From the NCBI GenBank assembly GCA_964421125.1, contig CAYQVD010000005.1:867-64866 (forward strand): a stretch of DNA of 64,000 nucleotides, read 5' to 3'. The first letter of the stretch is position 1; each line of letters opens with the position of its first letter. This document shows positions 5,114-58,312 of this stretch, piece by piece. The position numbers and the translations under genes were made by a program. Under the pieces are notes generated by a model. That model saw nothing but the letters and a program-made list of their open reading frames with translations, did not search any database and was not told the origin of the DNA. Source of the stretch: an uncultured Bdellovibrionales bacterium (GTDB lineage Bacteria; Patescibacteriota; Minisyncoccia; Moranbacterales; DUUL01).

Positions 5114-6118
5114 ATGAAACTTATTGTTAATATCCCTGCATTTAACGAAGAAGAAAAAATTGCAGAAACTATTGGGAGAATTAAAAAGAGCTTTCAGTCT
5201 GATTTTTATGTAAATGGACTTGGAAAAGTTTTTAATTCCAAGATTATTCAGGTAATTGATGATGGATCAAAAGACAAAACAGCTCAAGTTGCCAAAGAGG
5301 CTGGAGCTGAAATTATTGTTTCATACAAACCAAATCGAAGACTAGCTTATTCTTTTAAAATGGCAGTAGAAAGTGCTCTTGAAAACAATGTTGATTTAAT
5401 GGTCAACATTGATGCTGATGGTCAATTCGATCCAGAAGATATTCCAAAACTTCTTAAGCCAATTCTTGAAGGTGAAAAAGATATGGTGATTGCAAACAGG
5501 TTTGGTAACAAAAAAGCTCAAGATATTCCTTGGATAAAAAGCTTCTTAAATCAATTCGCTGCCAAGATTATTAGTTTTTTCTTGAATTACAAAATTGAAG
5601 ACCTGACTTGCGGTTTTAGAGCTCACAACAAAGAAACTCTCCTTCGATTAAATCTAACAAATGTTCATTTCACTTATACCCAAGAAACTATCATTGATGC
5701 GATTGGTAAAAACTTGAAACTTGTTTGGATTCCAGTTCATGTTACCTATTTTACTAATCGAAAATCAAGAATTGTGAGTTCAATTTGGAAATTTATTAAT
5801 AATTCATCAAAAATTATTATAAAAGCAGTAAGGGATGTTCGACCACTCAAGTTTTTTGGTTGGCCCGCTCTTTTCTTTATTACTCTTTCTATTTTAGGTT
5901 TTGTTGTTTTCTTTTATAACTATTTCCAAGAATTCAAAATCACCCCATACATTAATTATATTATTTTCGCTTCTATTTCCCTACTCCTGGGAATTCAATT
6001 ACTCGTTTTCTCTTTCATTGCTGATATGATCAAAGCCAATCGACAACTCACTGAAGAATCAATGTACCAACAAAAGAAGGAACGCTACCGTAAAAATAAT
6101 TTTCCTATCAATCAATAA
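5114..6118 (+). CDS. GT2 glycosyltransferase (DPM1-like polyprenol-phosphate sugar transferase) with C-terminal TM helices
   Basis: The N-terminal GT-A signature NIPAFNEE...IDDGSKDKT...DADGQ(DxD) is present. The ORF track translation predicts two C-terminal hydrophobic helices. Confidence 0.7.
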   Translation: MKLIVNIPAFNEEEKIAETIGRIKKSFQSDFYVNGLGKVFNSKIIQVIDDGSKDKTAQVAKEAGAEIIVSYKPNRRLAYSFKMAVESALENNVDLMVNIDADGQFDPEDIPKLLKPILEGEKDMVIANRFGNKKAQDIPWIKSFLNQFAAKIISFFLNYKIEDLTCGFRAHNKETLLRLNLTNVHFTYTQETIIDAIGKNLKLVWIPVHVTYFTNRKSRIVSSIWKFINNSSKIIIKAVRDVRPLKFFGWPALFFITLSILGFVVFFYNYFQEFKITPYINYIIFASISLLLGIQLLVFSFIADMIKANRQLTEESMYQQKKERYRKNNFPINQ

Positions 6119-7227
6119 TGAAAATATTATTTATTTCACATTCTTATCCACCAATTAAAGGGGGAGTAGAAAATCAGAACTATAATCTTGCTAGTAAGTT
6201 GCAAGAAAAAACTGAAACTAAAATTATTGCTAACGGAAGAGGAAAGAAATTCCTTCCCATCTTCCTTCCTTGGACCTTACTAAAGGCTTTTTTCTTAATG
6301 ACAAAATATGATGCCTGTCTTCTTGGCAATGGAGTCTTGGCACCAATTGGAGTAATTCTCAGATTTTTTCATCCAAAAAAGAAATTCTTTTGCATTGTTC
6401 ACGGACTCGACATAACATTTGCCAATCGAGAAGAGCTCCTTTCAAAGATATATCGAAATATCAATGTTCCTTCAATGAAAAAATTTCACAAACTCTTTAT
6501 GGTTGGAAACGCCACAATCGAAGAAGCTGTTTCTGCAGGAATTGATCGAAAGCTTTGTCAATTCATTCCAAATGGTGTAAACGAAGAAGATTTCAAGGAA
6601 AGCCATACCCGAAAAGAACTTTCTCAAATTTATGGAAAAAATATAGATGACAAAAAAGTTATCCTCCGCCTCGGAAGATTCGTTCCTCATAAAGGAGCAA
6701 GTTGGTTTATTGAAAATATCATGCCAAAACTTCCTGAGAATGTCGTAATGATTATAGCTGGTGGTCGAGTTAATCGAAAAACTGCTGGGGACCAAGACGC
6801 CTTTATTGACTGTGAACAAGCGATTATCAAAAACCATCTTGAAGATCGAGTCAGATTAATACCCTCCATTCCGCAAGATCAATTAAAGATTATTCTTAAT
6901 ACGGTTGATATTGTTGTTTCACCAAATATCAAGATTCCTGGATCAATGGAAGGATTTGGAATCAACGTAATTGAAGCTGGAATATGCAATAGAGTGGTTC
7001 TGGCCTCAGACATGGAAGGATTGGCAGACGCAATTAAAAATGGGAAAAACGGAATTCTAATTGAATCAGAAAATGAAGAACAATGGATCAAAAAAATTAA
7101 TGGCATTATCGACGCAGGTGATGAATTCATAGAGAACTTTGGAAAAAGAGCTGGAGAATATGTAAAAGAAAACTATAGCTGGGATAAAATTTCCAAAGAA
7201 TATATTAACGAAATGAAAAAGTTTTAA
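6118..7227 (+). CDS. GT4-family glycosyltransferase (GT-B, retaining)
   Basis: C-terminal EGFGINVIEAGICNRVVLASDMEGLADAI matches the GT4 E-x7-E region. The start codon overlaps the stop of the upstream GT2 (ATGA). Confidence 0.7.
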   Translation: MKILFISHSYPPIKGGVENQNYNLASKLQEKTETKIIANGRGKKFLPIFLPWTLLKAFFLMTKYDACLLGNGVLAPIGVILRFFHPKKKFFCIVHGLDITFANREELLSKIYRNINVPSMKKFHKLFMVGNATIEEAVSAGIDRKLCQFIPNGVNEEDFKESHTRKELSQIYGKNIDDKKVILRLGRFVPHKGASWFIENIMPKLPENVVMIIAGGRVNRKTAGDQDAFIDCEQAIIKNHLEDRVRLIPSIPQDQLKIILNTVDIVVSPNIKIPGSMEGFGINVIEAGICNRVVLASDMEGLADAIKNGKNGILIESENEEQWIKKINGIIDAGDEFIENFGKRAGEYVKENYSWDKISKEYINEMKKF

Positions 7228-51258: not shown

Positions 51259-54200
51259 TTATCTCTTCCAAGATTTCAATTTTCCTCTGAAATCTAATCC
51301 TTTTTTCTTATAATAATCCTCAAGATTTTTCATAAAAGACTTTCTGGTCATACCTGTATCACTTTTCAACTTAGTTATCTTTAAAAATTCCCTTGAGTTA
51401 ACAATAAATTCCCGTCCTATATCTTTGCCCTCGCTAGAATCTTTGGCAATTTTTTTATTAATCGTCTCTATGAACTGAGATACTGAAGCTGTATCTTTTC
51501 TTTCGGCTGAATTTTCAACTGAATTAGCTTCAGGACTCACATGACTTTGCATATTCTCCCTAGTCTTAAAATCACTCTTTCGTTCTTTTCTTCCAGTATC
51601 AACCCTCAAAGGACGATCCTCCTTGATGCTAATAAATTCATCCCTCTTATCTCGATAAGGATTTGCCTTTTTATTGACTCTTTTGATTTCCTTATCTACC
51701 TCCTTTAGTTTTTTATCAATCACTAATTGATTCTTTTCCATTTCCTTGAGACTATCTTTTATCATTTTATCTATACCTTTTATTGAACTCTCTTTTCTTA
51801 TTTTTCTATCAGAATCACCTGTAAGCCTCATAGCTTCTATGATGCTCTTTTTTGTTAACTCCAATTCTTCAATTTCCTTCTTTTTTTCATCATGCTTAGA
51901 CTTCAAGTCTTTCTCAATTGATTCAATTTCTTCTCTGCGTGACTTTAGTCCAGCCAACTCGTTCTCAATTGGATTGAGCTTTATTTCATAGCCATTAATT
52001 AATTTATCAGCAACTGCATCTCTTCTGTTAGAATGTTTAGCAATTATATTATCCCGATATTCAATTTTAGTTTGAATTTTATTTTTTTCATTATCCAACT
52101 TAGCATTCCTCTTGTCATAATCTTTTATTTTCAACATTAAAGATTCTCCGCCAGGAGCCCCTAATTGTTTTAATTTTTCAATAGTCCTTTTCATTTCTTC
52201 CTTAACTTTTTCATTAACAGCTTTCTTTCTATCAAAATTATCAGATTCTTTCTTAAGTTTGGCAAGTTCTTTTTCATTGTCTCTCATCCAAACCTGATTC
52301 CAACCAGCTCGAAATTTGCCAACAATCCTTCCTGCATCAGGAAATTTGCTTTTAACAAAATCCCAAGAATCACCAACGAGATCCTTAGCCTTGTCAGACA
52401 TCCTTTCCCAAATTCCTCTATTCTCCATACTTAACATTTCAAAACTCAATTTTGGCTCTTCTTTTTCTAGTTCAGAATAATCAATAAGAACCTCTGAACT
52501 AGATTCCCCTTCCTCTATTTTATTTTCCCCTTTTTCTTCTTCTAAGTCTGATAATTCAACTAGATCATCAATTCCCTCTTGATTTAAATTTTGTGAATCA
52601 ACAGTGTCATTGTTCTCATTTTCTATTTTTTCTACATCTGATATTAAATCTTCGCCTCTGTTCGGATCGTCCATTTTTAATTGATTCTTTTTTCGATTTT
52701 TTTCAAATTCATCATCTTTTAAGTTGCCCACTGCAACTCCACCCATATCTCTTCCTTGATTTTGGATTTGAGATTGACTTACTTTATCAGTAGCATTATC
52801 ATTATCATCTTCCTCAATTCCATCTTCATCTTGATCATTAAACATCTTTTGATGTCGTTTTTCCACATCCTCAAAACTATTAATATTAATTTTTTCCATT
52901 ATATTTTTTAAAGTATTATTATTTGAATTAAATTTAAAATTTTTAATTGTTTTTTCAAATTTTGAAAGAGATATTGATTCTTTCGTGACCTCAGGATTTT
53001 TGAACTTAATAATTTTATCTCCTCTTTCTTCTTGAGTTCGAGTTACCTCAACAATAACATGCCCTTCTCCTTCAGAAAGATAATCAATAACTTTTATTTT
53101 TTTGTTACTTTTTTTATCAACAAAAACAAGTTCTTTTTCGTCATCTACAAATTTATACCATTCAAAAAATTCTTTTATATTTTCAGGCATCTTAAAAAAC
53201 TTTTTTTCATCTTCAATTTCAAGTGCTGGTTCATATAGTTTTTCAAAATCACGAAACGACACTCTTCTGCCACTATTTTTTTTGCCATTCTTTTTTTCAA
53301 GAAAAACAGCTCCTTCACCTAAATCAAAATATTTAACCAATTCCATAACAATTTTTGATCCTTTCTTAACAAATCTATCACCATAATTATATTTTTCTTC
53401 AAATTCTTCTTGATCAGGCACATTAAGACCTTCTTGTTCTTTTTTCTTTCCATCTTGCACTTTTTCTTCTTGCTTATCTTCTTTTTTCTTAGAAGAAAAC
53501 CTCACTTCTTTCCCTGAATTTACTTTCACAAAACCATCATATTGATAATTTTTCATAAGGTCCTCAAATTCTGAATAATCCAACCACTTATACTTCAATT
53601 CATCAAATTTAACTTTTCCTAAATTATGTTGTTTATTGCCGTCATCTCCCATTTTCAAATCAAAACCTGGAGAAGTTGCAATTCTCACCCGACCATTTTT
53701 TTCATTATACTTCTCAATCAATACCACTTCTCCATTTTGATGAGACAAAAATTCTGGTTTTCGATTCTTGAATATTTTATATTTTTCACTGAATTCCTTG
53801 AAAGTTGGCCATTTCGTATTATTTTCTTTTTCAGTTTTATTTTTAATAATTTCCTCTCCTGGATTTTTGTTAACATTTTTTTCTTTTATGCCAAAATAAG
53901 AAGAAGATATTTTTATTTCATTTTTACTTTTAATTAGAATTTCTCTGAGAACTTTAGGAATTGTTTCTTGCTTATCAATCAATTTCCAAAGTTCTTCTTG
54001 GTATTTTGTTTCACTCCAATCTTCTTGAGTGGCTATTGCATTCCCAAGTTTTTCAGATTCTCTTTTAATAACTTCTTCGGCTTTTTTATATCTTTTAGAA
54101 TATTCTTTAAGAATCTCCTTATTAAAAACAAGATTAGCAATATCATCTGGGCTTAAAGCAAACTCTTCTTTATCTTCTAATTTTTGCTCATCTTGTTTTA

Positions 54201-54327
54201 ATGTTTTTTTCTGTTCTTTTTTTTCACTGCCATTTTTGCCATTTTCAACAACCTTTTCTATATCAGAAAGATTATTCCTTAAAACTTCACTTAAATTTCC
54301 TCTTTTTGGCTCTTTTTGTTCTCCCAT
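51259..54327 (-). CDS. Giant Lys/Glu-rich low-complexity protein with internal repeated small beta-like modules and a long C-terminal coiled coil
   Basis: 1022 aa with no TM or signal peptide. Repeated blocks (GEVVLIEKYNEKNGRVRI.., GSKIVMELVKYFDLGEGAVFLEK.., GHVIVEVTRTQEERGDKIIKF..) and a coiled coil over roughly residues 650-900. It is the first gene of the unit that ends with the T4SS-like ATPase. Confidence 0.5.
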   Translation of the reverse strand: MGEQKEPKRGNLSEVLRNNLSDIEKVVENGKNGSEKKEQKKTLKQDEQKLEDKEEFALSPDDIANLVFNKEILKEYSKRYKKAEEVIKRESEKLGNAIATQEDWSETKYQEELWKLIDKQETIPKVLREILIKSKNEIKISSSYFGIKEKNVNKNPGEEIIKNKTEKENNTKWPTFKEFSEKYKIFKNRKPEFLSHQNGEVVLIEKYNEKNGRVRIATSPGFDLKMGDDGNKQHNLGKVKFDELKYKWLDYSEFEDLMKNYQYDGFVKVNSGKEVRFSSKKKEDKQEEKVQDGKKKEQEGLNVPDQEEFEEKYNYGDRFVKKGSKIVMELVKYFDLGEGAVFLEKKNGKKNSGRRVSFRDFEKLYEPALEIEDEKKFFKMPENIKEFFEWYKFVDDEKELVFVDKKSNKKIKVIDYLSEGEGHVIVEVTRTQEERGDKIIKFKNPEVTKESISLSKFEKTIKNFKFNSNNNTLKNIMEKININSFEDVEKRHQKMFNDQDEDGIEEDDNDNATDKVSQSQIQNQGRDMGGVAVGNLKDDEFEKNRKKNQLKMDDPNRGEDLISDVEKIENENNDTVDSQNLNQEGIDDLVELSDLEEEKGENKIEEGESSSEVLIDYSELEKEEPKLSFEMLSMENRGIWERMSDKAKDLVGDSWDFVKSKFPDAGRIVGKFRAGWNQVWMRDNEKELAKLKKESDNFDRKKAVNEKVKEEMKRTIEKLKQLGAPGGESLMLKIKDYDKRNAKLDNEKNKIQTKIEYRDNIIAKHSNRRDAVADKLINGYEIKLNPIENELAGLKSRREEIESIEKDLKSKHDEKKKEIEELELTKKSIIEAMRLTGDSDRKIRKESSIKGIDKMIKDSLKEMEKNQLVIDKKLKEVDKEIKRVNKKANPYRDKRDEFISIKEDRPLRVDTGRKERKSDFKTRENMQSHVSPEANSVENSAERKDTASVSQFIETINKKIAKDSSEGKDIGREFIVNSREFLKITKLKSDTGMTRKSFMKNLEDYYKKKGLDFRGKLKSWKR

Positions 54328-54580: not shown

Positions 54581-56224
54581 ATGAAAAAGGTAATCAATTT
54601 TATAAAAGAAGAATGGATTTTTATTATTATTCTCTTGGCAGTTTTTACTGCGGGTGGACTCCTACGATTTTGGCAATTAGACACGATTCCTCCAGGATTA
54701 CAATATGATGAAGCCTATAATGGCACCGATGCCATCAAAGCCCTAGAAAATGGAAAGTTTGAAATATTTTATCCTGATAATAATGGACGGGAAGGACTCT
54801 ACATCAATGTTATTGCTGTATTTTTCAATACTTTTGGTATTAATATGGTAGTCCTTCGAGCTGTTAGTGCTGTATTTGGACTCTTTGCTCTTTTTGGATT
54901 TGCACTGCTCGTTAAAGAACTAAAACTTTCACGCCTTTCAATGCTCCTAGGAATTTTCATGATGTCTTTCTCATTTTGGGCAATTAATTTTTCAAGAACT
55001 GCTTATCGAGGAATTATGGTTCCATTCTTGATTGTTTGGATATTTTATTTTTTCTATCTTGGCCTTCGGAGAAAAAATGGCTGGTTCATTGCTCTCTCTG
55101 GTCTTCTAACCGGAATTGGATTTCATACCTATATCTCATTTCGAGTTGTGCCATTGATTTTTTTTATTGTAGTTTTAGGAGGAATTATTTTTGAAAAAGG
55201 ATACATTAAAACCTACTGGAAAAAAGCTTTGATTTTCATCTTCGCTACAGTTATCACTCTTGCGCCAATTTTAATCTATTTCTATCAGCATCAAAGTGAT
55301 CTCATTGGTCGAAGCAATGCTGTTTCAGTTTTCAATTCTCCCGACATGAGCCTTCCAACAGCTCTTGGTAAAAGCCTTGCTTATCACGTTGGAGCATTTT
55401 TTATCCACGGAGACCCAAATCAAAGACATAACCACGGTGCACTTCCCTTACTTCCTGCCACTTGGTCAATTCTCTTTGGACTAGGATTAGTAATCAGTAT
55501 TAAAGAAATAATCGTAAATATTATCCAGCGAATAAAGAAAAAGAAGAAGTATAAACCAAGCCGACTACTTCAAGTTTCAATTTTCGCTCAAGCCTGTTTT
55601 TGGACAATGCTAATACCAGGAGTTTTGAGTATCGAAGGAATTCCACACGCTCTTCGAATTATTGGTGCAATTCCAGCCGTCTTCCTGATCGCTGTTTTGC
55701 CATTTGAATATGCAATAAATCTATATGAAAAAATCAGGAAATCAAAAAATTTGAAATTAAAACCTTGGCGATGGAATGTTTTACGAGGATCTTTGATTGG
55801 ATTAGTTATTTTAGTTTTAATAAGCGGAGGATTACAAGCCTATTTATATTTCGGAGTTTGGGCAAAAGATAATAAAACATTTGATTCCTTTGAAAGGAAA
55901 CTTTATGACCTAGGACTCGCAATTAAACAACAAGAACCAAAGGAAAATAACTTCATTATTGTTCCAGACCCAATCTATATTAGTGAGAACAAAAGAGATT
56001 CAAGTTATAAAACATCGGAACTTGTCGCCTATCCAGAATACAAGAGTTTTTTCTTTTGGCACCCGCTAGATGCGATCAGACATTCAACTTGTGAAAACGC
56101 TCTCTATGTTTTTGCTGAATCAGATGAATGGCTAATTGAAAGTTTCAAGATAAAATGTCCTGAACTTGAAGCACAGAAAGTAAAACCAGAAGGCGGTATT
56201 TATAATTTTTGGATACTTAGATAA
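54581..56224 (+). CDS. GT-C glycosyltransferase of the ArnT/PMT (GT39/GT83) type
   Basis: 547 aa polytopic protein. A DExY-type motif LQYDEAYNG sits in the first extracytoplasmic loop. Confidence 0.6.
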   Translation: MKKVINFIKEEWIFIIILLAVFTAGGLLRFWQLDTIPPGLQYDEAYNGTDAIKALENGKFEIFYPDNNGREGLYINVIAVFFNTFGINMVVLRAVSAVFGLFALFGFALLVKELKLSRLSMLLGIFMMSFSFWAINFSRTAYRGIMVPFLIVWIFYFFYLGLRRKNGWFIALSGLLTGIGFHTYISFRVVPLIFFIVVLGGIIFEKGYIKTYWKKALIFIFATVITLAPILIYFYQHQSDLIGRSNAVSVFNSPDMSLPTALGKSLAYHVGAFFIHGDPNQRHNHGALPLLPATWSILFGLGLVISIKEIIVNIIQRIKKKKKYKPSRLLQVSIFAQACFWTMLIPGVLSIEGIPHALRIIGAIPAVFLIAVLPFEYAINLYEKIRKSKNLKLKPWRWNVLRGSLIGLVILVLISGGLQAYLYFGVWAKDNKTFDSFERKLYDLGLAIKQQEPKENNFIIVPDPIYISENKRDSSYKTSELVAYPEYKSFFFWHPLDAIRHSTCENALYVFAESDEWLIESFKIKCPELEAQKVKPEGGIYNFWILR

Positions 56225-56246
56225 AATTGATTAAATAACAAATTTA

Positions 56247-56689
56247 AAATTACAAATTCCAAATAAATTACAATGACTAAAAATCAAAATTCAAAACAAT
56301 ATGATTTGGAAGATAGAACCTTGGAGTACGGAAAAAGGATAATTAGAATGTCGAAGGAATTACCTAAAAATACAGTAAATTTTAAATTAATTGATCAAGT
56401 CGTTCGTTCTGGCACCTCAATGGGAGCAAACTATAGAGAGGCTAATGAAACAGAAACGAAAAAAGATTTTCGTTATCGCATAAGAATTTGTAGAAAAGAA
56501 GGCAAGGAGACTATTTATTGGTTAAATTTAATAATAGAAGCTAATCCTGAATTTGAAGACAGAATTAAAAATTTATTGCAAGAAACTACAGAGTTAGTAA
56601 AAATATTTGCTACAATTCTAGTAAAGTGCAAGTAGGTGTTTTGAAAATTAGAATTTAATATTTTTAATTTATTTGGAATTTGTAATTTT
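56247..56689 (+). mobile_element. IVS-like cassette: a four-helix-bundle gene bounded by perfect 24-bp inverted repeats
   Basis: IR-L AAAATTACAAATTCCAAATAAATT (56247-56269) equals the reverse complement of IR-R AATTTATTTGGAATTTGTAATTTT (56666-56689). A 14-bp tandem duplication GAATTTGTAATTTT follows IR-R. This is the same architecture as 23S rRNA intervening sequences, but here it lies between protein-coding genes. Confidence 0.6.
56273..56635 (+). CDS. Four-helix-bundle protein (PF05635 / 23S rRNA intervening-sequence protein; DGR Avd family)
   Basis: 120 aa. LIDQVVRSGTSMGANYREANETETKKDFRYRIRICRKEGKETIYWLNLI matches the family core (LxDQLxRAxxSIxxNIAEG...DF...IAxxSxxEx). Confidence 0.75.
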   Translation: MTKNQNSKQYDLEDRTLEYGKRIIRMSKELPKNTVNFKLIDQVVRSGTSMGANYREANETETKKDFRYRIRICRKEGKETIYWLNLIIEANPEFEDRIKNLLQETTELVKIFATILVKCK

Positions 56690-56715
56690 GAATTTGTAAT
56701 TTTTTATTAAGTTAT

Positions 56716-56756
56716 ATAAAAAGTGTTACTTAACTTGTTAAGTAACACTTTTTTGT
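56716..56756. terminator. Bidirectional terminator: perfect 12-13 bp hairpin AGTGTTACTTAAC/GTTAAGTAACACT flanked by A- and T-runs
   Basis: AAAAAGTGTTACTTAACTTGTTAAGTAACACTTTTTTG lies between the convergent four-helix-bundle gene and the GT-C gene. Confidence 0.7.
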
Positions 56757-56776
56757 TGAATCCAGGTGAAAAATCT

Positions 56777-58312
56777 CTATTTAATCTTGCAAATTTGATA
56801 ATCCTCAAACTCTGCGACTTTTTCTAGTTCTGCGATTTCCCAATTGCAATCTCGATCAACTACAATCGAACTCTCTTTGTATTCCATCAATTCAGCTTCA
56901 TCTTCTATCCTGTTTTCATTCCCAACCACAACCCAACCTGAAAAATCTTCCATTGGATTAGCCTTGTTGTAATATCTCACCTTATCTTTTCCAAAGTAAT
57001 ATCTGGCTGATGTATATTCAAAAGGATTAGATGTAATTATATATTCCTTCTGAAATAAACCTTTCTCATAAGCCTTAAAGAACTGACTCCAACCCGTTTG
57101 ATACGTAATCTGATTTAAACCAAGTAATAATAAAGCATAAATAAATAACGTTATAAGCCAAGCCCATTTTTTCTTAAAAACTTCCGTAATAAGTCCCGCT
57201 CCAAGAAGATAAAACAAAACAGCTGATGGCATAAAATACCTTGAAACATAAAGCTTGATGTTCACATAGGAAAGTAGTATCAAAAAAGCCAATGTTCCAA
57301 TAGAGATCAAGGATAGAACTAGGAACTCCTTTCGTTTCTGATTTTTCTTCCAAGCAACCACAAATAAAACTGTTAATAATATCAAGACTAACAATCCAAC
57401 AGAAGACCCATTAAAAATTGATGACTTGTTAATAGCTAAGTCAGCAAATGAATTTGCTTCTGGAACTCCGCCTGTTCCTGGCAAATGTCCGAAAAGAAAT
57501 ATCTGCAATGTACTTGGGATATCACTTAAATATGAAACATCAATCCAACCCAAATTTCCTTTCAACATGTGCGTGATGAAGATTTTTATCCAACTCAAGA
57601 AAAATAAGGCAATCACTCCCACTCCAATCCAAAACCCCTTATCTCCGAAAAGAACAGCTCCTTTATTTTTTGCTTTTTTCGTAAAAGGAATATTAAATAT
57701 TTCTTTTTTATTAAAATTCTTTTGATACAAAACATACGCTACATAAAACATTACGAAGAAAAACAAGGAGAGATAGTGAGTCAAAAAGGCTAACCCTCCA
57801 AAAACTCCCCACAAAACCCAGTCTTTAATTTTATTTTTCTGAAGCGCCCGATAGAAAAACCAAACTGCCCACAACAACAAGAACCCAAACAAGCTATACA
57901 TTCGAGCTTCTTGTGAATATTGAATTGCAAATGGAGAAAACGTCGCAATAATAGCAGCTAACATTCCTGCTCTCTTATTAAACATTTTCCACCCAATCCA
58001 AAATAAAGAAATTACCGTCAAAACACCAAAAACAATAGAAAGGGATCGAATCCCAGCAGGAGAATAGTCAAACATAGCACTCCATGGCTTGGCTATCCAA
58101 TAATGAAGAGGTGGATGAACATCATCAAAAATCATTTGATTCATTTCAGGAAGAGGTTGCTTCAAAAGAATCCCGGTGAAAGCTTCGTCATACCAAAAAT
58201 CTCGATCTTCCAATACCGGAGAAAACCGAATTAACACAGCTAAAATAACAACCAAAATTGGTAGAACCCAGAAAAGATTCTTGATTATCTTTGTTTTCGT
58301 TTGTTTTTTCAT
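56777..58312 (-). CDS. GT-C glycosyltransferase of the ArnT/PMT (GT39/GT83) type, second paralog
   Basis: 511 aa polytopic protein. DExY-type motif FWYDEAFTG in the first loop. Confidence 0.6.
   Translation of the reverse strand: MKKQTKTKIIKNLFWVLPILVVILAVLIRFSPVLEDRDFWYDEAFTGILLKQPLPEMNQMIFDDVHPPLHYWIAKPWSAMFDYSPAGIRSLSIVFGVLTVISLFWIGWKMFNKRAGMLAAIIATFSPFAIQYSQEARMYSLFGFLLLWAVWFFYRALQKNKIKDWVLWGVFGGLAFLTHYLSLFFFVMFYVAYVLYQKNFNKKEIFNIPFTKKAKNKGAVLFGDKGFWIGVGVIALFFLSWIKIFITHMLKGNLGWIDVSYLSDIPSTLQIFLFGHLPGTGGVPEANSFADLAINKSSIFNGSSVGLLVLILLTVLFVVAWKKNQKRKEFLVLSLISIGTLAFLILLSYVNIKLYVSRYFMPSAVLFYLLGAGLITEVFKKKWAWLITLFIYALLLLGLNQITYQTGWSQFFKAYEKGLFQKEYIITSNPFEYTSARYYFGKDKVRYYNKANPMEDFSGWVVVGNENRIEDEAELMEYKESSIVVDRDCNWEIAELEKVAEFEDYQICKIK

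Follow-up and report, generated by a model that had tools for sequence, protein, structure and literature searches.

The element described here lies at positions 56229-56703 of a 64,000-nucleotide stretch of DNA, hereafter the window (contig CAYQVD010000005.1 of assembly GCA_964421125.1, from an uncultured bacterium assigned by GTDB to the Patescibacteriota), and consists of a small gene of protein family PF05635 held between two long, mutually complementary arms of phased heptamers; we refer to the whole as the cassette. An earlier note on this DNA had likened it to the intervening sequences (IVSs) of 23S rRNA, and had suggested that it might be mobile or self-excising at the level of RNA. 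The observation is confirmed, and the IVS-like reading is both supported and extended. Our best explanation, which we regard as reasonably probable, is that the cassette belongs to a large family of palindromic, phased-heptamer hairpins that follows an RNase III-type model. The family is found in three states: (a) hairpins of about 120 nt that lack an open reading frame (ORF) and stand between co-directional genes, (b) the classical IVSs, inserted in 23S rRNA at helix tips, and (c) hairpins with a PF05635 gene in the apical loop, the start codon and first nine codons of which are supplied by the arm. The window element is neither the accessory protein gene (Avd) of a diversity-generating retroelement (DGR) nor an rRNA IVS.

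Structure of the cassette and its protein

The perfect 24-nt inverted repeat described around the ORF (AAAATTACAAATTCCAAATAAATT in its left copy) is real, its left coordinate being corrected by one base to 56246. When the 64 kb were searched with up to three mismatches allowed, this core gave two matches against 0.01 expected, a count reached in 0 of 100 shuffles; both are the arms themselves, and no further copy was found within that span. The perfect repeat forms the core of longer arms, each of 66 nt (56233-56298 and 56637-56702), that are 82% complementary, and the cassette accordingly has the terminal inverted repeats and long stem of an IVS. Tandem Repeats Finder (TRF) reports a period of 7 with 4.6 copies in each arm (56233-56264 and 56671-56702), and in the right arm a period of 14 besides (56671-56703); the 14-bp tandem duplication previously noted at the right end is thus present, but amounts to two heptamers of the period-7 array. 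Likewise, the ORF does sit exactly between the perfect cores but not between the complete arms, the left of which takes in the first nine codons, ATG included. The right arm begins one base past the stop codon, and codons 10-120 make up the apical loop of the hairpin. The predicted RNA fold of positions 56225-56760 pairs the two arms (-118 kcal/mol, z -5.7); an Rfam search of 56100-56850 found no known RNA family.

Assignment of the 120-aa product to PF05635, made earlier by eye, is borne out by profile searches (63.4 bits against a curated cutoff of 33.8; TIGR02436, 81.2 bits against a cutoff of 24). An AlphaFold monomer model built with 36 homologues (pLDDT 90) predicts four helices, at residues 12-29, 34-59, 63-90 and 92-119, with the arm-encoded residues 1-9 disordered. 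Foldseek ranks 2RLD, the Bacteroides 'S23 ribosomal protein family' structure, first (TM 0.78-0.86), followed by 2GSC (Xanthomonas Xcc0516) and then by the Avd structures 4DWL and 8UB7; phmmer also relates the protein to 2RLD (E 1e-17), and the model has the up-down four-helix-bundle fold of 2RLD and 2GSC. To our knowledge, structures have been solved for the S23p/PF05635 family and its function is not known. PF05635 was the only Pfam match of the protein, and no DDE or HUH/Y1 transposase motif or nuclease motif was found in it. Searches of PADLOC and PHROGs gave no match for the protein, phage, viral and defence libraries yielded nothing relevant, and no member of the protein's clade was present in IMG/VR viral contigs. 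The protein has more than 900 relatives, the best 120 of which are 76-91% identical to it. Across cassettes the median dN/dS is about 0.07 with synonymous sites saturated, and even the copy at locus L004 (L-numbers being our handles for compared loci), with a protein 93% identical to that of the window, differs by dN 0.033 and an already saturated dS of 1.4. The 120-aa protein is under strong purifying selection.

The arms as a property of the gene family

For comparison, 80 genome loci with homologues of the protein were retrieved, their hosts including classes of Patescibacteria as well as Omnitrophota, Scalindua, Nitrospirota and Chloroflexi. An inverted-repeat score of at least 35 across the gene was obtained for 62% of the 78 homologues with usable flanks, as opposed to 2% among the 444 other genes that these loci contain (Mann-Whitney p 1e-38). 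Arms of this kind hold around homologues in Patescibacteria, Omnitrophota, Scalindua, Chloroflexi and cyanobacterial plasmids, the heptamers themselves being lineage-specific. In both arms the autocorrelation peak at lag 7 is 0.45-0.50, for homologues above and below 65% identity alike, relative to 0.27 in control DNA. Spacings also cluster, at 38-48 nt upstream and 65-85 nt downstream, for a compact unit of about 470 nt.

A left arm scores 42 on average against its own right arm, and 29.5 against the right arms of other loci (p 1e-9), and at L046 the left arm contains a GC-rich segment of 28 nt of which the right arm has an exact mirror copy; we therefore conclude that the two arms co-evolve. 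Over 21 cassettes, the 30 nt preceding the ATG (-30 to -1), in which AAAT recurs every 7 nt, are 77% identical, in comparison with 50% at third codon positions; therefore the arm sequence itself is constrained, beyond its ability to pair.

Some arms and loops, otherwise AT-rich, carry GC-rich inserts of 27-90 nt, a few with GNRA-like loops (L046:5950-5985 and 6385-6412; L101:4361-4392; L251:100-215), and one of these is polymorphic between samples of a single locus, being present in L101 and absent from L100 and L102. At L152:7255-7320 a solo heptamer arm lies in frame within a minus-strand gene of 499 aa, where it is translated as ...KITNSKLQIPNKFKIQNPNVQN..., and a GC-rich palindrome, read as RDEALPRL in translation, occurs twice in the same gene, at 6940-7030.

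Hairpins without a gene

A 20-nt sub-core of the arm, ATTACAAATTCCAAATAAAT, occurs in at least 120 metagenome contigs, one of them with an insert in a 23S rRNA gene (L251, below). Among the matches listed, 116 could be evaluated and were sorted by the distance to a partner arm: in half (58/116) the partner lay within 170 nt, giving an ORF-less hairpin, in 5/116 it enclosed an ORF-sized loop of 385-395 nt, in 3/116 it stood at some other distance, and 50/116 had no convincing partner. These matches represent 54 distinct ORF-less hairpins with a median length of 121 nt, and 37 of 39 lie between co-directional genes, where they start at -3 to +15 nt relative to the stop codon of the upstream gene. 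The orientation of the hairpins was dropped as a line of evidence, as a palindrome reads the same on both strands.

A hidden Markov model (HMM) built from the ORF-less hairpins alone matches the two window arms (56229-56326, E 3e-12; 56633-56703, E 8e-10) and nothing else in the window, and it also matches the arms of most cassettes, together with some 25 extra hairpins in their flanks. That a complete IVS-like unit exists outside rRNA, as first proposed for the window, is therefore upheld by hairpins from elsewhere. The apex motif CAAAAC...GTTTTG, which the window hairpin contains, was considered as a defining feature and rejected, being exact in 5 of 54 hairpins and recognisable with one mismatch per half in 33 of 54.

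Plasmid homologues and known heptamer repeats

Nine plasmid-borne homologues from cyanobacteria and Chloroflexota, 35-42% identical to the window protein, were also compared. A significant inverted repeat spans the gene in seven of the nine, and in most of them heptamers of the plasmid's own kind abut the start and stop codons: (AATTCAA)4 in Nostoc flagelliforme, (CAATTCG)4 and (TTGCGAA)4 in Nostoc punctiforme, (CCCCAAT)6 and (CGTAAAT)4 in Planktothrix, TTTAGAT in Gloeocapsa, and GAAGGAT and ATTCATA in Chlorohelix. Heptamers such as CCCCAAT are familiar from the short tandemly repeated repetitive (STRR) sequences of cyanobacteria. Comparable repeats have been described in Xanthomonas (GGGAATC) and Nostoc (GGGGAYT) (PMC4692102) and in Beggiatoaceae (TAACTGA) (PMC4679880), and a text search of the two papers found no terms for four-helix-bundle genes or rRNA IVSs. 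Like the cassette arms, these repeats are intergenic arrays of 7-nt units, often beside start codons and sometimes arranged as convergent inverted pairs, and the PF05635 genes on the Planktothrix and Nostoc plasmids are flanked by heptamer arrays that resemble the known repeats.

In a separate observation, plasmid four-helix-bundle genes of cyanobacteria and Chloroflexota were found inside defence operons (L131, L271, L273, L274 and L275). Their positions are between cas2 and cas1, upstream of cas1, between DISARM drmD and an MmeI-type enzyme, between a helicase and an N6-methylase, and between a DUF1156 gene and a Swt1-HEPN gene.

Relation to 23S rRNA intervening sequences

IVSs have been known in bacterial rRNA since 1990, and we know of no accepted account of their origin. 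The direct link between them and the window is provided by L251, where ATTACAAATTCCAAATAAAT falls within a gene for 23S rRNA (Rfam LSU_rRNA_bacteria, 1612 bits). By alignment, the 150-nt insert occupies an apical loop, that of the helix spanning model positions 573-600, which we take to be helix 25, one of the classical IVS sites; the fold of the insert has -90 kcal/mol (z -13), and the insert has a run of 23 identical nt in common with the left arm of the window. The same 23S gene holds a second heptamer hairpin at 6067-6190, approximately gene positions 155-280, which by position and flanking sequence, rather than by model alignment, is consistent with the helix 9 site, and a further hairpin is intergenic, at 40-223. 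As a side observation, a group I intron (L251:8359-8555; Rfam, 53.7 bits) is present in this 23S gene along with the two inserts.

A close parallel is the helix 45 IVS of Coxiella burnetii, in which a 28-bp terminal stem is cleaved by RNase III, as shown experimentally, and three tandem GACAGAT heptamers precede the ATG of S23p (PMC4990558). IVSs with S23p ORFs also occur in Leptospira, Brucella and Xanthomonas (cited in PMC4990558), and in rRNA genes of the candidate phyla radiation the classical sites are reported to have short IVS-like inserts, and 23S_rRNA_IVP ORFs are reported as well (PMC11270868). The window cassette resembles the Coxiella type in its inverted-repeat stem, in the tandem heptamers before the ATG, in the PF05635 ORF carried in the loop after them, and in its total length of about 430-470 nt, and a hairpin with its arm sequence is found as a helix 25 insert in L251. 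Unlike the Coxiella IVS, the window copy has a protein-coding gene on either side and does not occupy a helix tip (helix 9, 25 or 45) of an rRNA gene, and its ORF is under strong purifying selection whereas that of Coxiella is decaying and probably untranslated. Cleavage by RNase III is established for the Coxiella element and predicted for that of the window. The suggestion that the cassette offers a clue to how IVSs spread is strengthened, given a family of hairpins dispersed between genes with and without the ORF, and rRNA appears to be one of several settings of a more widespread genomic element, seen there as IVSs. Our literature search, which was incomplete in coverage, found no description of an extra-ribosomal hairpin family or of a link between PF05635 and heptamers.

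A proposed mechanism and what weighs against it

Under the RNase III-type model that we favour, the cassette, apparently without a clear promoter of its own, would be transcribed together with its host operon. We place it in the host transcript because it is co-directional with the upstream neighbour in 72 of 81 related loci, with 57 in the '++' arrangement and none in '--'. The arms may then pair as an A-U-rich duplex of about 60 bp, which RNase III would cut by analogy with rRNA IVSs. Inserts would be tolerated where continuity of the RNA is dispensable; removal of the duplex by RNase III would therefore allow copies between cistrons and at the tips of rRNA helices. The protein, a putative pentamer-type bundle related to the nucleic-acid-binding Avd, is a likely reader of the heptamer arrays. 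If this is correct, it may explain why inserts are tolerated only in such places.

Several observations weigh against this account. Co-orientation of the sort just described is also usual for ordinary genes of operons, and the conservation of arm sequence would fit a binding site at the level of DNA as well. In two tests of stem mismatches, G:U pairs numbered 54 against 62 A:C and 77 against 65; the two are about equally frequent, with no strand-specific excess of G:U, so that no selection for transcript pairing can be detected. The mirrored insert of L046 points to copying between arms at the DNA level. The window holds a single cassette in its 64 kb. No ORF-bearing cassette of this clade was found in rRNA among the 80 genome loci (no 16S or 23S motifs), called protein-coding genes flank the cassette on both sides in the contigs for six exact proteins, and the sole rRNA copy seen is ORF-less. 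For the cassette itself, 'self-excising' and 'mobile' remain inferences.

Going beyond the window, it is possible, though we advance it only tentatively, that PF05635 proteins are dedicated partners of heptamer palindromes across bacteria, binding the arrays and helping to generate or maintain them; this would span STRR-type repeats, the intercistronic hairpins of Patescibacteria and rRNA IVSs. The heptamer-array design recurs around PF05635 genes from Patescibacteria to cyanobacteria. Were the idea true, a single system would unite a protein family whose function is not known, repeats of a kind so far unexplained, and the way in which IVSs arose.

Alternative explanations

A serious rival to the RNase III-type model is a mechanism at the level of DNA, analogous to the small transposable elements with inverted repeats known as MITEs or to the doublets (REPINs) of repetitive extragenic palindromic (REP) sequences. 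The hairpins would here be non-autonomous and the ORF cassette the master copy, its protein recruiting host enzymes to copy and insert hairpins in the manner of the REP-associated tyrosine transposases (RAYTs), with RNA pairing incidental. We judge it unlikely, and it is not exclusive with a mechanism acting on RNA. In its favour, the spectrum of stem mismatches is symmetric, and the 28-nt mirror of L046 needs arm-to-arm copying or insertion into the tip of a palindrome. Intergenic palindromes far outnumber gene-enclosing copies (about 12:1 for one 20-mer, among the matches listed), the gene is flanked by inverted copies, and the repeat sequence is lineage-specific, all as in REP/REPIN-RAYT systems and MITEs. 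Dispersed multi-copy palindromes alongside a gene-bearing copy were found across metagenomes and other genomes, though not within the 64-kb window. No encoded or cognate transposase (DDE, HUH/Y1) accompanies them, however, the protein being a helical bundle of 120 aa with none of these catalytic motifs and no nuclease motif, and the arms are heptamer arrays rather than one fixed palindrome.

The record of movement likewise cuts both ways. Several genomes have two or more cassettes, and the neighbours of the window cassette are syntenic in 0 of the 80 genome loci. At L008 a cassette splits ABC-transporter genes whose homologues adjoin in the window, and cassettes occupy differing positions in two homologous DGRs (L004 and L094). 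L090 and L094 have in common a segment of 412 nt (from ATG-3 to stop+64) that is 99.76% identical, and nothing else, in unrelated contexts; contigs also break inside the repeat. Against these stand the saturated dS between cassettes, the invariable retention of the cassette in population samples, where it is fixed, and the absence of the clade from viral contigs of IMG/VR. An all-against-all screen of 270 loci yielded no filled and empty pair for either hairpin or cassette, the only differences being two unrelated indels, and no target-site duplication was identified, the arm ends being too repetitive to read one. The earlier description of the cassette as mobile can thus be kept over long time scales but not for recent movement, and in showing no recent transposition the cassette also departs from REPIN-RAYT and MITE systems. 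The comparison with an empty site that had been called for was made with orthologues of the downstream 511-aa gene: for those 77-79% identical the contig stops at the cassette or at the terminator, and no clean filled and empty pair was obtained. In one of them (L084, 79% identical) the repeat is at the same site and the contig breaks within it, and in the next relatives (58-60% identity) the locus is rearranged.

Two observations attach to these loci. An identical 114-aa four-helix-bundle (4HB) protein occurs in three contexts among L090, L091 and L094 (JGI metagenomes), namely BacA-4HB-S24 peptidase, BacA-4HB-RT-BroN, where RT is reverse transcriptase, and KilA-N/template repeat-4HB-RT-BroN; the second matches the first as far as the cassette and the third beyond it, which would reflect either recombination in the 412 nt or an assembly chimera. 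Hybrid contigs of the L091 type, as possible chimeras across the 412-nt repeat, were not used as evidence of integration. A 1370-nt insertion distinguishes L093:6325-7696 from L090:6725-6741, carries a 408-aa gene on the opposite strand and has a flank overlap of 17 nt, possibly a target-site duplication; this insertion has no relation to the hairpins.

If the gene were an ordinary resident that regulates its own translation, or the stability of its mRNA, through pairing of the 5' and 3' untranslated regions, with the likeness to IVSs convergent, this would account for a start codon buried in the stem, for a protein strongly conserved and stably inherited, and for the element at the same site in a relative. 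We hold this to be improbable, as the arm sequences are far commoner without the ORF than with it and occur in 23S rRNA as well, and as it is the sequence of the arms that is conserved and not pairing alone.

More doubtful still is that the gene is an orphan Avd serving a DGR elsewhere in the genome. Avd forms a pentamer and binds both nucleic acid and the reverse transcriptase, and the window protein has the four-helix-bundle fold of Avd proteins (bAvd, 4DWL, 8UB7); its closest genome relative, L004, and the P0094 group lie inside DGRs, as cassettes sometimes do. The window protein is nevertheless nearer to 2RLD and 2GSC in sequence and structure, with Foldseek placing S23p-type structures well above Avd. 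Where cassettes lie in DGRs a separate gene of the Avd type is present, a bAvd gene (PF22296) in L094 and, in L004, a second ORF of 112 aa that is Avd-like by eye only, and the places of the cassettes differ. As the earlier note had observed, no reverse transcriptase is near: tblastn with a DGR reverse transcriptase found one within 6 kb in 1 of the 80 genome loci and none in the window, L004 and L094 alone showed template and variable repeats, and the window has neither the adjacent reverse transcriptase nor the template/variable repeat pair that mark a DGR Avd gene. The link to Avd that the note had drawn is one of related fold only. The DGR at L004:4862-8664 (Moranbacteria UBA4824) is complete, and its parts are listed in Table 1. 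Last, a chance inverted repeat in AT-rich, low-complexity DNA, which an AT-rich genome and A/T-rich arms might suggest, is refuted by the shuffles, by the specificity of the repeat to the gene family and by the z-score of the fold.

Genomic setting and further observations

The contig is of patescibacterial, Moranbacteria-like type. The window contains no rRNA, and protein-coding genes lie on either side of the cassette, in agreement with its original description as lying outside rRNA (Table 1). The stop codon of the upstream gene is 4-8 nt 5' of the left arm, depending on the arm boundary used. The flanking genes had been called paralogous glycosyltransferases of the GT-C type; the homology between them is only distant, with 25% identity over 170 aa (E 3e-7), and of the two products the 511-aa one alone passes the PMT_2 profile. 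The hairpin beyond the right arm, between the convergent cassette and PMT_2 gene, agrees with the folded structure and is a probable bidirectional terminator, outside the element. Its description as a strong terminator is supported by the perfect stem and the A and T runs, although a simple consensus terminator scan did not call it.

Table 1. Coordinates of the cassette, its neighbours in the window, and the parts of the L004 retroelement.
Feature	Locus	Position	Strand	Basis or identity
Upstream host gene, 547-aa membrane protein, distant GT-C homologue	window	54581-56224	+	
Left arm, A-rich, about 9 phased heptamers (AAAT every 7 nt)	window	56229-56298	+	inverted-repeat (IR) search, TRF, HMM
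Perfect 24-nt left core	window	56246-56269	+	repeat search
Cassette ORF, 120 aa	window	56273-56635	+	PF05635 / TIGR02436 ('S23p' / 23S rRNA IVS protein family)
Right arm, T-rich, reverse complement of left arm	window	56637-56703	+	IR search, TRF, HMM
Perfect 24-nt right core	window	56666-56689	-	repeat search
Hairpin with perfect 17-bp stem, A run and T run on its flanks	window	56718-56753	.	IR search, sequence
Downstream convergent host gene, 511-aa PMT_2 glycosyltransferase	window	56777-58312	-	
Variable repeat of the DGR target gene	L004	5640-5825		
Hairpin cassette	L004	~5960-6440		
112-aa ORF	L004	6508-6846		
Template repeat	L004	7000-7183		
Reverse transcriptase	L004	7423-8664		

At 51259-54327, on the minus strand, the window encodes a protein of 1022 aa that is very rich in Lys and Glu and has no Pfam match; its gene is the one just upstream of that for the glycosyltransferase. 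Of practical consequence, heptamer and hairpin elements systematically break short-read metagenome assemblies; two contig ends at the locus of the 511-aa gene fall, respectively, in the heptamer repeat (L084:6540-6574) and in the terminator hairpin (L085:5550-5571).

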